64,000 nucleotides of DNA from Eledone cirrhosa (lineage: Eukaryota). A program made the translations under genes and the position numbers. The stretch lies in the NCBI GenBank assembly GCA_964016885.1, contig OZ024750.1:5890001-5954000 (forward strand), in the 5' to 3' direction. The notes under the pieces are model-generated. The model saw nothing but the letters and a program-made list of their open reading frames with translations. It made no database searches and was not told the DNA's origin. Below, one piece after another: positions 351-42,962 of the stretch (position 1 is its first letter; each line of letters begins with the position of its first letter).

Positions 351-567
351 CGTAATGAAGGAGTAACCACTTGTCCTTGTTTTATTTTACTATAATACAC
401 TCTGTCTAGCTCTACACCTCGACACTGAAGTGAACCTAAACATCGAGTGCTCACCCGAGTGAACCTACAGTAACTCACCGTTACACCCTCTGGATATATA
501 TATATATATATATATATATATATATATATATATATATATATATATATATATATATATATATAGATGA

Positions 568-616
568 GATTCTGTAGGACTAGAACTGTTTCATTCTTTA
601 GAAATCATCAGGAATC
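568..616 (-). ncRNA. Degenerate type I hammerhead ribozyme between (TA)n tracts
   Basis: Minus strand GATTC-CTGATGA-TTTCTAAAGAAT-GAAA-CAGTTCTAGTCCTACA-GAATC; same family as 24250-24300; stem III is mutated. Confidence 0.55.
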
Positions 617-1713
617 ACACATATATATATATATATATATATATATATATATATATATATATATATTTCTCGGATAACGAATCATCCATATACTAACCTA
701 TTCTATTGTTTTTCTCATGGTCAGTCATGATAGAGTTGAACGATGGTGAAAATAATTCCAGCCATGATAATATCCTCTTTCATCAGGAGGGTAACCTTCC
801 TATTGCACTAATTTGAGGAAGGTTTAGCTGGAATGTCTACCCAACGTTTTATCTATCTACCTATCTAGCTGTTTGTTTTAAAGCCTTTTAAAATATTTAT
901 TTAAAAACCATCCATCACAATTTTAGTTAATATTCTAAACACCTGTTAAACGATGAGAAAGTTAGTGATTATATGAAATCTCTCCAAATTCTTGATTGTG
1001 TTCAAAATGATCTGAAAATTATAGACAGAGCTTTTCTTAGGAAATATAGTAATGAAAGGGTTAAAATGAATAGCCAGCCAAGTTGATCTTAGAAGCGTAA
1101 AACTCCACTCTACCTAAAGCCATTCTTATTTCAGCTATGATTTTAATACATATTCCATGGGTGGAGGGAGCGTCGTAGATTGAGAGATAACTTGCCAAGT
1201 ATTTGAGTCCATAGGAGAGTTTTAATTCCCGAATGAATCAAATTAACTTCCTTTCTATCACTTAAGGCTTGAAAATTATAACTATTCCTCTTCCTTATAA
1301 ATCTTGTGTCTAAATAAGAAGTAAATATATCATACTGTAAATTTCAACAAGCAACCTAATTCCTTTCTCTTGTTCGAATTAAATTTTGACCGTAGGTTAA
1401 GATTGCCTGAGAATGTGAAGAACTGACAATCTATTGTGTGAAGAGTCAGCTGTATTCACATTTCAAACTGCAGTAAAGGTAATTTCCGGCCATATTTGAA
1501 ACTCTTATTGATATTCCTTTATCTTACAGTCAAAAATAATCAAATGAGTATTTGTCGTAAGATATGGTATATTCATTACCCATATCTTTGCCAATAATTT
1601 TCTCATTATATCGTCTGCACTTTTAATAATGAAACTTTGAATGTGATAGAGATGATAATGTAAGTAGCGCATCATACTGTCAAAGAAACTGATATTTTTT
1701 ATTATCATTATTT

Positions 1714-1906
1714 AGTGAATTGGCAGTATCAGTAGAGCGTTAGACACCATGCTTTACAGCATAGAGTTATGGCCCTTTACGTTCTGAGTTCAAATCCCAT
1801 CGAGGTTAACTTTGCCTTTCCTCCTTACGGGGTCGATAAAATAAAGTACCAGTAATGCACTGGGATAATTGCTGGCCTTGTGCCAAAAGTAGAAACAATT
1901 ATTATT
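1714..1906 (+). mobile_element. tRNA-derived SINE family A (resembles Octopus OR-type SINEs), near full length
   Basis: A-box-like TGGCAGTATCAGTAGAGCG, B-box GAGTTCAAATCC, core GGGGTCGATAAAATAAAGTACCAGT, (ATT)n tail; more than 15 related copies in the window. Confidence 0.85.
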
Positions 1907-3043
1907 CCTAAATTCTGATGTCAAATCCCAACAAGGTCGATATTGATTTTAATTCCTCCATATCCAATAAAGTATTTACTAGTATCATATTGTAGTAGAT
2001 CATTCGAGTATGTTCCCTCATCTCGCTATAATAGCATTTCTGTAGAAGAAATAAATCAATATCTTTGACTTTATACAACGAACCCTTAACGCTGTAGAAA
2101 TCTATATTTTTTAGCTTATCATTTAACCAACTACTAATGTCAAGACAATTCTATTTAAAGAATTAATTTTATTATTATTTTGGCAGGAGAGGGAAGAGAT
2201 GAAATCTATATAAAAATATCTATGATTTGTATCTGCACGAAAATTTATGTTTACAAAAACACTGAATGTTCTTTCATTTTATTTTTCCTATGCCAAGACT
2301 GCTTATCCTTTTCATAGACAAACAGCAGATCGATTGCGAAATCAATAATCAAATAGCAGCAGTATATCTTCTGAACATCAATGCAACCTTTGAGAAATGA
2401 GCTGCCATTTTCGTCTCTTCAACAGTTGTTTAAGAGCCGGAGTTGGGAGGGATTTATTTTACAGACACTAATGTATTGGCCTCTGCTTCAACTCCTCGTG
2501 TATCCAATGTATGAGTCACGCCGGGTTATTTGTACAGGCAGAACAAGCGGATAAAATCTTGTTTGAAACGAATGAGTTGAGTAAAAGTTGATAAAATAGC
2601 GAAATGATCTTAAATATTTTCTTTATAGCGAACTTAGATACACCTTTCACCAGTAGAGTATGACATCGTGACAGTTATGTGCAGATATTTTTTATGGTGC
2701 TAGTTCAATTGTATTATTTACTGCTGTTGTAATGCATAGTAGTAGTAGAGATAGTAGTAGTAGTAGTAGTAGTAGTAATGATGGTAGTAATAGGAGTAGA
2801 AGTGGTGGTGGCAGTAGTAGTAGTAGTAGCCATAGAATCTGTTGTTGCTTCATAGGTCTAGATGATGGTGAGAAATATTAGAGGGAAAAGTGCTAGACGT
2901 ACCGTTGCTTTGGAATAGTAGTTTGTTTGGTACGTGTAGCAGAGAAAGAAAGATATAAAGTTATAAAAGAAAGACAAATACGAGAAAAGCCATAAGAAAT
3001 TGAATGAAAGAGGATTGAAAATAACTTTTAACCAGCAATATTA

Positions 3044-3236
3044 CTCTCGTTCGAAGCAGTGGTTGCAGCCTGGAAGAGACCTCGTTGCAGGTCCCGCATC
3101 AGATGGTTGGATATCATCAGGGAAGATCTCCAGAGGCTCGACATCACCTTGGAGGAAGCAGAGGAGCTGGCACGAGACCGCCAGCGATGGAGGGCGCTGG
3201 TTGTCCTGGTGGGCTCTACACATAACGATCGCTGAC
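3044..3236 (+). mobile_element. RTE-clade LINE 3' fragment
   Basis: A frame not listed in the ORF track reads WKRPRCRSRIRWLDIIREDLQRLDITLEEAEELARDRQRWRALV. Confidence 0.7.
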
Positions 3237-40384: not shown

Positions 40385-41289
40385 GTATATATATATATAT
40401 ATATATATATACACACACTTATATATGTCTATATATTAGGTTAAGCCATAAAGATGTTTTCGTTAAATTTACATGGGGGGGGGGGGGGCAGTAGATCTAA
40501 TACTGTACTAGATTTATGCATCAGTAACCCAACTTGTGTATATAATGTGAGGTCCATTGTCCTCATAAATAACTCTTTGAAGATTTTCAGATTAGTCTAT
40601 TTAAATATATAAGTAACAATAGACACAAGATCGTCCTAGATGACTCTCGAATTAATAGACAAGTCTCAGCTGTTACAAATACGAGCAGTCTTCATGAGAA
40701 AATATGAGAGAAAATTACAGAGATTAGAAAAAGTAACAAAAATGCAAAAACACTGCGTAGCCATTTATGTATAAGTCTTTGGTTTTTCTTTGCTTCTTTA
40801 AATGTAGAATCATTTCATGTTTTTGAATTCTTATCTTAATCTCCGTTGACCTTGTATAATTAATTTCAGTTTCACCATTGCTATCCGATACATAATCATT
40901 GCTTGCGGAACTCATTTGTTTACACTAACGTTCGTTTTGAATAATATAATATTCACTTAAATTAGCGTTAATTCCTTACTGAATTACAAGGTTAAACGGA
41001 ACTGTACAAATGACTTGACTTTACTAATGTCAAATTATTTAATATAACGCCATAGAATTATATTTTATAGAACGGGGCGGAACTTCCTATTAGATGCTGT
41101 ATTAAAAACACCTTTATGTAGGTTTGACGTCTTATACTGTAAAGAACATTATACCTCTGTTGTAGACTCATGAAAGCATCATTTCTTGTACCAAAGATAT
41201 CATTAATAGTCTCAATGATTCAAAAGTGATACTTTATCATTCCAGTTATCAAATAGAGTTTCACATTGAAATACTAGAATATACTAACA

Positions 41290-41497
41290 GGGGAGACTTC
41301 TGGTGTCCTTGGCCCTAGCGTCACCCCCTTACTCATCATCATCGGAACAGAGTTAGCTACTGGTAGGTTCTTCTGTCGTGTCCAGGCAAGCCGGGACAGT
41401 GACAGAGAGGTACAAAGGTCGTAGGTTTTACTTTTGAGTGTCCTTCTCCTAGGCAGTTGCCAACCAAGGCTAACGAGTCTGCCTCTCCTGTGACGCG
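41290..41497. mobile_element. CRE-like RLE fragment (41290-41360, +) abutting a short LINE-derived piece (41368-41497, -)
   Basis: First part matches the 79-bp satellite unit; second part carries CTAGGAGAAGGA (as at about 59630) and a GGACACGACAGAAGAA tail (as at 29320). Confidence 0.55.
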
Positions 41498-41532
41498 AAA
41501 GAATATATATATCATAAATATATACCATAAAA

Positions 41533-42072
41533 CAGGGGTGTGCAACATATTCCATTGGCGGGCCACTTTTGAACATTGGAACAACTATTAGGGCCATTAA
41601 TATTTATTAAACACTATTCCAAAGATTCACCACAACTTCTTTCCATAACATGGGACTGGGAAATTATAACACACATAACCCTATCAGTGAAGCCCTTTAG
41701 TATAGGTCAACTGGGAAATTATAACACACATAACCCTATCAGTGAAGCCCTTTAGTATAGGTCAACTGGGAAATTATAACACACATAACCCTATCAGTGA
41801 AGCCCTTTAGTATAGGTCAACTGGGAAATTATAACACACATAACCCTATCAGTGAAGCCCTTTAGTATAGGTCAACTGGGAAATTATAACACACACAACC
41901 CTATCAGTGAAGCCCTTTAGTATAGGTCAACTTACAGAAAATTGTATTACGGTTACGAAAAAGAATTCTAAATAAGCCTACAATGTAAAAATTAGAAATG
42001 GTCATCGCGGGCCACTCTGGCTGGTCTGGCGAGACAGATTGTGGCCCGCGGGTCGCCTGTTGCACGCCTCTG
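41533..42072. mobile_element. hAT-type MITE
   Basis: TIRs CAGGGGTGTGCAAC / GTTGCACGCCTCTG, subterminal GCGGGCC motifs, imperfect 8-bp TSD CCATAAAA / TCATAAAC. Confidence 0.8.
41655..41932. repeat. 55-bp minisatellite, 5 copies, inside the hAT MITE
   Basis: Unit ACTGGGAAATTATAACACACATAACCCTATCAGTGAAGCCCTTTAGTATAGGTCA. Confidence 0.95.
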
Positions 42073-42754
42073 TCATAAACAATATATCCCTTATAACAAC
42101 TGTGTATTTGTGGCCATGCGGCAGCAGTTCCACCATAATGGTATAAATCCAATCCACACTTGAATGATATATCTTGTCTTGAGGAACTATTAAGACAGTC
42201 ATGGACCTTATCTACAAACTATCTAAAATAATCTTCCGTGATTCATATAAGGATATGTTTATTTTTTTTTATAGGTGACTGATTATGTCTGATAAACGTT
42301 CAGTGAAGAATCAACACTATTTCATTCACGCCCTAATACAAATGTTGGCAGTTAAGACCAGATTTTCACGCCCTAATAATTAAATAAATCATTCTAGTAG
42401 CAAGCCAGGCGCTAAAGAGATGGGTGACGTTGATACAAAACTGAAGACTGGAAATGTTGAAAGTAAATAGGATTGAGATTGCGGGAAACGCTATGTAGCT
42501 GAGCGAAGAAAATACATTCATATATATATTTATAGATTCATACATATATATACATATATATATATATATATATATACACACATATATATATATACATATA
42601 TACACAAACACATATATATAGTGGTAGAACACTGGAAGGTAATATCCGTAGTGGTAGAGCACTCAATCCATGGAACGAGTTAGGTAGAAGTGGTTACACA
42701 ACAGTTAGTTCACCATACCGAGAACAATTATATATATATATATAGATATATATA

Positions 42755-42962
42755 TATTAAAATAACAGATTAAAGTTTAAGCAAAGAATCGCTGCTTTCA
42801 CCCTTAACTTCTGAGTTTCAGAAGATCCCGTTAAGGGTGAAAGCAGCGATTCTTTGCTTAAACTTTAATCTGTTATTTTAATAAATATTTGCTCTACGGT
42901 TCTTATATATTAGATATATCGAGCCCTCTTTGGATTTTAGTCTTCACATTTATTATTATTAC
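42755..42962 (+). mobile_element. TA-embedded fold-back module with A4-variant hammerhead fold (42813-42864); relatives at 28270-28345 (-) and 51367-51400
   Basis: GAGTTT-CAGAAGA-TCCC-GTTAA-GGGT-GAAA-GCA..TGC-TT-AAACTT; inverted arms within 42755-42883. Confidence 0.7.

Follow-up and report, generated by a model that had tools for sequence, protein, structure and literature searches.

Modules of the window and their motif

The window, i.e. the whole stretch of 64,000 nucleotides analysed here (Eledone cirrhosa, GenBank assembly GCA_964016885.1, contig OZ024750.1, positions 5,890,001 to 5,954,000), contains seven short modules whose 3' ends run into microsatellite tracts (table 1). Judged from their sequences, these modules are the 3' ends of Penelope-like retroelements (PLEs) of the Hydra clade, made up of pseudo-long terminal repeat (pLTR) pieces—with an inverted arm in five of the seven—and a 'tail' leading to the tract. 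In the tail lies a motif, which is the 3' strand (box 2) of a predicted bulged RNA hairpin, RCTCY...RTNGAGY-RCTY. This hairpin has a second copy further 3' in the elements, and the hairpin pair is a real cis-element, probably not described before, in a known clade of retroelements.

All seven motif strings of the first-pass annotation lie where it had placed them and on the same strands. Its consensus, ATYGAGTRCTC, is matched exactly by three of the seven, with one mismatch by two and with two mismatches by the remaining two, the true consensus being wider, i.e. RTNGAGYRCTY. The proposed spacing of 35-50 nt to the repeat tract describes the window sites well (41, 45, 47, 50, 44, 36 and 34 nt; at the 13829 site the 45 nt are measured to a CA tract, with the TA tract at 70 nt), but families as a whole range from 28 to 62 nt. 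Less regular are the hammerhead and AATAAA that had been placed upstream of the motif: AATAAA occurs within 220 nt upstream in only four of the seven modules, 32-91 nt from box 2, and only two have a CTGANGA core that is intact on the strand of the motif.

By number alone the motif is not enriched in the window, where five matches with at most one mismatch compare with 3.3 in shuffles (22 of 100 shuffles reach five) and 27 matches with at most two mismatches compare with 48.6. In the host assembly (3.0 Gb, rich in microsatellites), the exact motif occurs 55,917 times versus 1,154 times for a reversed control, and 17,819 of 27,176 forward matches have TATATATATA, (TA)5, 25-50 nt downstream, versus 45 in the control (forward matches only; the reverse-strand count is inflated by overlapping matches). 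Among the first 30 exact loci, (TA)4 follows at 35-50 nt in 14 and at 21-60 nt in 17. A sample drawn independently of the motif (60 x 10 kb, i.e. 600 kb with 846 TA junctions) also placed 12 of 21 matches with at most one mismatch 30-49 nt upstream of a TA junction, versus none of two for the reversed control; with at most two mismatches the figures were 31/83 versus 9/32, and ATTGAGT and GAGTGCT appeared de novo among the top 7-mers of the 30-49 nt zone. A positional peak is thus present genome-wide, and the tails are not one aligned family: downstream of the box they are unalignable between families (mean pair score 2.4 versus 2.2 when shuffled). The surroundings of the motif, stated earlier not to be conserved, do include an upstream box, RCTCY (box 1), that is kept.

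Carrier elements

The modules had been regarded as dissimilar; they are not unrelated, as all of them descend from one PLE clade. A broken open reading frame (ORF) upstream of one motif match led to the abundant family A, with many open frames of 784 codons (150 of 26,103 candidates scored) and, in four tandem units, a 717-residue ORF counted from the first Met. Its translation is that of a single ORF with a YRDD reverse transcriptase (RT) followed by a C-terminal GIY-YIG region (NVIY..AYIG), and holds a DKT motif and a CxCx5C linker; where the Hydra clade has RWK it reads RWR, as does the published Hydra-1_Crog. The Hydra assignment is based on such sequence motifs, domain order and comparison by eye with published proteins, the tree comprising this genome's sequences only; for three Hydra ORF sequences, Pfam matched no family. 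Inner tandem units of family A continue through the tail into the next ORF, and the last unit halts at the same point against (TA)n. Partial tandems, an inverted 5' partner and a one-ended tail, i.e. the PLE hallmarks, are all seen, and insertion into (TA)n is as in the Hydra clade. Two dimensions differ from those given for the clade or for PLEs in general (PMC8557442): the tandem unit of family A, with its 1.2-kb untranslated region (UTR), measures 3,542 bp and therefore falls outside the tendency to less than 3 kb, and the tail between the two ends of these families is ~65-127 nt and not 30-40 bp long. Family A is also young, with many near-identical frames and tandem arrays (L121/L122, G000:C1:91.47-91.49 Mb), and its hammerhead core departs from CTGANGA.

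Other genomic copies tie six of the seven window modules to Hydra-type ORFs. The motif at 24011 belongs to family A itself; the 442 family, with copies 90-95% identical, enters such an ORF in the read-through copies L400-L402; in L197 the module 4 tail (24334) lies ~100 nt upstream of the ORF start; and a subfamily related to 40142 reads through into an ORF in L398, L399 and L406. The 42657 family follows Hydra-type endonuclease (EN) domains in L121 and L302, and the 42918 family follows one in L248. Only an inverted ORF fragment (L278) and a hammerhead region resembling those of the 442 and 40142 families link the module at 13829. Between carrier families, RT cores share 27-78% identity (15 rows; L307, without a long match, excluded). 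By eye, hammerheads look canonical in the module 1, 2 and 4 families, and deviate in those of modules 3 (family A) and 7; no hammerhead was among the 150 of 446 Rfam matches listed, which were microRNA noise on microsatellites and inverted repeats.

Two other origins were considered and rejected. Naiad, guessed from the (TA)n targeting, is excluded by the C-terminal EN and DKT, since Naiad has an N-terminal EN, CxC and DKA and lacks a canonical hammerhead; by eye, the motif was not seen in four Naiad 3' ends. A non-LTR retrozyme would be a head-to-tail array of hammerhead monomers, and no such array exists at any of the seven modules. From L215:1196 downward (minus strand), a Hydra-like EN end precedes a UTR with several motif-like repeats and not one tail.

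A predicted hairpin with compensatory changes

Box 1 (RCTCY) lies 12-65 nt upstream of box 2 (RTNGAGY-RCTY) in the window families, the longest distance being that of the module 2 family (65 nt; 30 family copies aligned). In the predicted fold, a 4-bp stem RCUC/GAGY is followed by a 1x3 internal loop that sets Y against R-U-N and by an inner helix whose loop varies freely, with RCUY single-stranded on the 3' side. Module 7 has a G-C version (GCTCT against GAGC), and ~12 nt of the loop are lost in this copy. Genome-wide, matched box pairs (A..GAGT 84,270; G..GAGC 19,414; 103,684 in total) far exceed the mismatched form (A..GAGC 1,627), with G..GAGT at 9,895, these figures being copy counts and not independent events; the G..GAGT matches listed are mostly the inner GCTCT of two A-U families.

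Counted by family, the two halves of the hairpin also go together. When the partner site was selected automatically in 19 of the 23 clusters with several members, the helix score averaged 5.68 versus 4.96 +/- 0.11 for halves swapped between families, and none of 5000 swaps reached the observed value. This set excludes a tail satellite (L073-L090), 28 singletons and four clusters, three of which represent the palindromic core from the wrong strand and one a pLTR arm ending at the proximal site. In 23 hand-picked hairpins—a set that leans toward the model because the selection pattern required both boxes—the end pair is A-U in 11, G-C in 11 and G-U in one, i.e. canonical in 23/23 (permuted mean 17.7), the first inner pair is canonical in 22/23 (permuted mean 11.2), and the position facing N is mostly unpaired (paired in 2/23). 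Pairs were counted with both ends anchored because RNAalifold and MAFFT misaligned hairpins of unequal length. At the four scored varying positions of these 23 hairpins G-U occurs ten times and A-C once, which favours the sense strand. In L035:1486-1512 and its relatives, some copies cap hairpin 1 with a C(UUCG)G tetraloop and others have CpG-decay variants there, which likewise favours folding of the sense RNA.

A T-loop or tRNA-like arm was rejected as an alternative fold: the -1/+8 pair that would close its 7-nt loop is canonical in 12 of 19 families, the next two positions are mostly unpaired and the mean pair probability is 0.01. At G000:C1:14.23-14.27 Mb (L073-L090), ~58-bp units consisting of hairpin 1 of family A and a few flanking bases form the satellite mentioned above, which extends over at least 25 kb.

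Copy ends and a second hairpin

Tail-less copies end ~2-7 nt 5' of hairpin 1, irrespective of hairpin length. Among 181 tail-less or inverted ends, 141 lie 0-15 nt before box 1, 29 one base inside it (TA microhomology) and 11 elsewhere. This proximal end follows box 1, not box 2: with box 1 at -43 the end is at -46 (8/8 in the module 1 family, 3 nt 5' of box 1), with box 1 at -39 at -41 (23/24 in the module 7 family, 2 nt 5' of box 1), at -18 at -21 (4/4), at -17 at -22 (48/52 in family A, the same position as in the window copy) and at -13 at -17 (5/5).

Read-through copies reveal a second hairpin, usually GCTCC + 6-10 nt + RTNGAGC-RCTT, ~4-14 nt past the TA junction and roughly 10-65 nt upstream of the ORF start. 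None of 131 TA-ended distal copies enters hairpin 2, and 79 end 0-9 nt before it. A twin-hairpin pattern, set to exclude most of family A, matches 653 times genome-wide versus 15 times for its control; as this search presupposes the pair, it speaks for spread, not for universality. Among its first 30 loci, 22 run on into an ORF of Hydra type, two read through without an ORF match and six are inverted or adjacent tails. Four 5' ends found from the ORF side have a canonical hairpin 2 in two cases and a variant in the other two. TA-like bases precede each hairpin on its 5' side, so that the junction is blurred and microhomology is offered to a nicked (TA)n end; junctions of the loci read have no poly(A).

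Thus, the geometry first proposed for the motif has to be redrawn, because it is one half of a predicted hairpin that marks the proximal end just 5' of itself, and the TA junction abuts a second, uncopied hairpin. L403, which had been a candidate for a second hairpin, turned out to be one family's tail nested behind that of another. The copy L407 (G000:C1:197.49 Mb) contains hairpin 2 and stops ~4 nt past it against (TA)n, next to a partner with a short tandem unit.

The hairpin in published Hydra consensi

Six consensi in File S7 of PMC8557442 were read by eye. Hairpin 1 is clear, each time as GCTC/GAGC with a bulge of AT, in Hydra-2_Amil of a coral and in Hydra-1_Ajap and Hydra-2_Ajap of a sea cucumber, and occurs as a variant in the sea-louse Hydra-1_Crog. 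Hairpin 2 exists in all three consensi that include a 5' UTR, being canonical in Hydra-1_Ajap, GCCC/GGGC in Hydra-1_Crog and terminally mismatched in Hydra-1_Obim. The Hydra-1_Ajap consensus itself ends 2 nt 5' of its own hairpin 1. Four exact 11-mers are absent from this supplement, where only variants are found. With these consensi, the hairpin is kept in three other phyla, with compensatory A-U/G-C changes here and in the coral and sea-cucumber consensi.

A start signal for reverse transcription?

Two boxes, their covariation, a tandem second copy, the link to Hydra-type ORFs and ends that accumulate, within a short TA-like stretch, just 5' of one or the other hairpin are present in the sequences themselves. 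What they suggest is that the tandem hairpins just before the ORF probably dock the RT-endonuclease, with copying starting a few bases 5' of each. Each hairpin would then most likely set one internal start of reverse transcription, the pair yielding the PLE 'tail'. The endonuclease would nick a (TA)n target, the freed TA end would pair with the TA-like stretch 5' of a hairpin, and priming at hairpin 2 would copy the spacer and hairpin 1 as the 'tail' but never hairpin 2, whereas priming at hairpin 1 would generate the tail-less, often inverted partner. The motif would thus lie 28-62 nt before the TA junction because copies primed at hairpin 2 carry the tail with hairpin 1 in it. The cis-acting signal for RT or endonuclease recognition or 3'-end definition postulated by the first-pass annotation fits this evidence, although not as an isolated linear sequence that gauges the 35-50 nt up to the junction. 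A further step, about which we are more doubtful than confident, is that the tandem, uncopied docking hairpins might place two RT-endonuclease molecules on a single transcript and prime both strands of the nicked (TA)n. If true, one RNA element would account for the inverted head-to-head copy and the one-sided tail as well as for the mobilization of non-coding hitch-hikers. Penelope-like RTs are the sister group of telomerase, and the hairpin pair would give such a telomerase-like RT a portable 'start here' tag.

A possible parallel from experiment is the Poseidon protein PAc, which nicks both strands of AT-rich DNA and uses two internal starts that bound the tail, with the main start at +111-118 and RNA up to +172 being required (PMC11167929). 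This requirement fits, by analogy, an essential element that lies 3' of the start and is not copied.

Several observations weigh against such a role of the hairpins. At the level of the motif, the conservation of box 2 in the family set is circular, because the families were collected by a box 2 match. At the level of structure, automatic partner-site scoring still mis-sites at least three families, permutation counts overstate independence because kin share pair types, and RNAalifold gave no structure, though from a misaligned input set. The thermodynamics are modest, with a mean pairing probability of 0.43 for sense versus 0.37 for antisense (19 families, several with wrong sites), and four of six window hairpins fold as drawn, isolated short hairpins often refolding. 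In the published consensi, hairpin 1 is partial in Hydra-1_Amil and unrecognizable in Hydra-1_Obim (PMC8557442 File S7). As to the ends, 7/67 proximal ones extend 1-2 nt into box 1, and 52/131 distal ones score 10-14 nt before hairpin 2, which is partly an artefact of single reference copies. Hairpin 2 is a variant (GCAC/GUGC) in the single read-through copy of the 24334 family and has terminal mismatches in two other families; the families of 13829, 42657 and 42918 yielded no read-through copy. The end of L407 beyond hairpin 2 is a rare case that a two-start model does not predict.

The main rival is that the hairpins or the GAG-YR-CTC dyad are read as DNA by the endonuclease, which trims cDNA or the second strand just 5' of them, so that the ends are cut points. 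GAGYRCTC is indeed self-complementary, all four central steps are YR (CG 7, TG 7, TA 5, CA 4), the tail has been ascribed to EN-mediated resolution (PMC8557442), and the Drosophila virilis endonuclease needed the tail as DNA, as recounted in PMC11167929. Yet the right half is often CTT or CCT, with perfect dyads in only 8/23 hairpins, covariation with a box at a distance of 12-65 nt would be left unexplained by a duplex site, and the starts of PAc in vitro coincide with genomic ends (PMC11167929). Taken together, we consider trimming unlikely.

Distinctly unlikely, in our view, is RNA processing, in which the hairpins would direct a host nuclease or 3'-end formation and the transcripts, ending just 5' of them, would be copied from these ends in the manner of long interspersed nuclear elements (LINEs). 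Sharp ends and the AATAAA of four window modules would suit it, but the other three modules, including that of the most abundant family, have none, the junctions of the loci read lack poly(A), tandem units continue past both sites into the ORF, and PAc starts internally on unprocessed RNA (PMC11167929). With hairpin 2 so close to the ORF start, and with promoters in the pLTRs of D. virilis Penelope and Chlamys-3 (PMC8557442), the hairpins might also be kept for expression, i.e. as a translational control element or internal promoter in the 5' UTR, and adjoin the ends only via the shared pLTR-ORF border; this seems very unlikely, since it predicts neither a proximal end that tracks, to within a few nt, the base of a hairpin of 12-65 nt nor a distal end before hairpin 2. 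A functionless relic of common descent, amplified by copy number, would account for carriers from a single clade and for exact matches mostly from one family, but it is most improbable: the compensatory changes largely refute it, and the retention of the hairpin in duplicate and its persistence across such divergent RT cores and three other phyla, while downstream flanks are unalignable, speak against it.

Relation to known systems

The Hydra clade, hammerheads, tail and twin internal starts are already published. With the C-terminal EN+ Hydra clade (Craig et al. 2021, PMC8557442; e.g. Hydra-1_Obim, Hydra-1_Ajap), the carriers share a single ORF with RT plus a GIY-YIG-type region at the C-terminus, DKT, CxCx5C, (TA)n insertion, a type I hammerhead-like motif in the pLTR, partial tandems, an inverted 5' partner and a one-sided tail. 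The accessible part of that paper describes no tail motif or hairpin, though both are visible in its own File S7. Poseidon PAc (Frangieh et al. 2024, PMC11167929) is alike in its two tail-bounding starts inside the RNA at the pLTR-ORF border, its AT-rich target and the required 3' RNA. It differs in being one element of another clade, in which an AC-rich stem-loop is the place of initiation, without conserved sequence, covariation or a tandem pair, and in that its start sites lie inside the ORF and not, as here, in the 5' UTR. Metazoan non-LTR retrozymes (PMC7229834; 10.64898/2026.07.22.740005) resemble the modules in being short and non-coding, and carry type I hammerheads akin to those of PLE pLTRs, but they are head-to-tail hammerhead arrays, whereas those in the window are 5'-truncated ends, either single or inverted; these papers (Cervera and de la Pena 2020; Li et al. 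2026), in the parts consulted, name no such hairpin. In the literature covered, i.e. the accessible parts of PMC8557442, PMC11167929, PMC7229834, PMC3846280, PMC4209133 and 10.64898/2026.07.22.740005 among others, neither the hairpin nor its duplication was found, subscription studies of D. virilis Penelope and Repbase notes being outside this scope.

The Hydra hairpin has a more general counterpart, and differs from it in where it stands. LINE RTs recognize 3' stem-loops for template choice (L2/CR1 with their short interspersed nuclear elements; the R2 3' UTR), and non-autonomous copies share these stem-loops. Such stem-loops stand 5' of the start, and every insertion receives a copy of them; the Hydra hairpin is short too, but it lies 3' of the start that it probably sets, is left uncopied from there and is present twice.

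How PLE RTs choose their RNA and start site was named as a next task (PMC8557442), and two internal starts have since been mapped without a recognition element (PMC11167929). A covarying, cross-phylum hairpin behind each start reduces the start-site question to a few point mutants, and nature offers a compensatory pair within the same element, where hairpin 1 is A-U and hairpin 2 is G-C. The hairpin also provides an annotation handle for more than 100,000 such ends in the genome, as counted by paired-box matches, and might be used for loading chosen RNAs onto a microsatellite-targeting RT.

Features and other repeats of the window

Table 1. Modules of the window with their hammerhead-like motifs, AATAAA signals and hairpins. 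MFE, minimum free energy.
Feature	Position	Strand	Remarks
Module 1	236..493	+	pLTR fragment plus tail, 3' end of a Hydra-type PLE family; abuts (TA)n 494-561
Type I hammerhead-like motif, module 1	254..340	+	core CTGACGA 259-265, second core box mutated here; by eye, no Rfam match
AATAAA, module 1	345-350	+	
Hairpin 1, module 1	399..452	+	box 1 ACTCT 399-403, box 2 442-452; MFE fold pairs the boxes
Module 2	13456..13884	+	inverted-repeat pLTR pair 13456-13780 up to the proximal site, then tail to (CA)n
Hammerhead-like motif, module 2	13645-13733	+	
AATAAA, module 2	13735-13740	+	
Hairpin 1, module 2, damaged	13785..13839	+	box 1 partly deleted, ~21 nt of loop lost; box 2 13829-13839
Module 3	23964..24186	-	inverted pair 24044-24186 plus tail; abundant intact-ORF family A
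Hairpin 1, module 3	24011..24038	-	box 1 24034-24038, box 2 24011-24021; inverted arm halts 5 nt 5' of box 1
Module 4	24183..24394	+	inverted pair 24183-24323 plus tail
Hammerhead-like cores, module 4	24228-24250		intact on inverted arm (position given), mutated on +
Hairpin 1, module 4	24322..24344	+	box 1 24322-24326, box 2 24334-24344
Module 5	40098..40389	-	inverted pair 40170-40389 plus tail; AATAAA 40217-40222
Hairpin 1, module 5	40142..40170	-	box 1 40166-40170, box 2 40142-40152; perfect 5-bp inner stem (MFE fold)
Module 6	42620..42728	-	tail plus short pLTR end; box 1 42676-42680, box 2 42657-42667
Module 7	42750..42962	+	inverted pair 42750-42888 plus tail; box 1 GCTCT 42891-42895, box 2 42918-42928

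Apart from these modules, four pLTR ends in the window lack a tail but have hammerhead-like cores and apparently belong to the same clade (562-620, minus strand; 15330-15441, plus; 32130-32238, minus; 51600-51700, minus), three of which halt at a TA tract; the piece at 562-620 belongs to the module 4 family. Tails of different families are nested in each other's TA-like junctions and form composite clusters, in the window at 23964-24394 and 42620-42962 and elsewhere at L403 and L416.

A repeat search of the window was dominated by TA tracts. Fold-back insertions of other repeat families are the likely origin of further inverted repeats, long and perfect or nearly so, at 27850-28050, 43170-43340, 51030-51220, 51770-52025 and 53300-53420, and these repeats gave rise to the false microRNA matches. 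Short ORF remnants at 50356-50742 (plus strand), 12249-12647 (minus) and 32152-32547 (plus) resemble C-termini of non-LTR retrotransposons; for the remnant at 12252-12647, Pfam returned no match. Homogeneous minisatellites with 96-99% matches are found at 41655-41932 (55 bp), 43754-44166 (22 bp) and 44213-45284 (79 bp).

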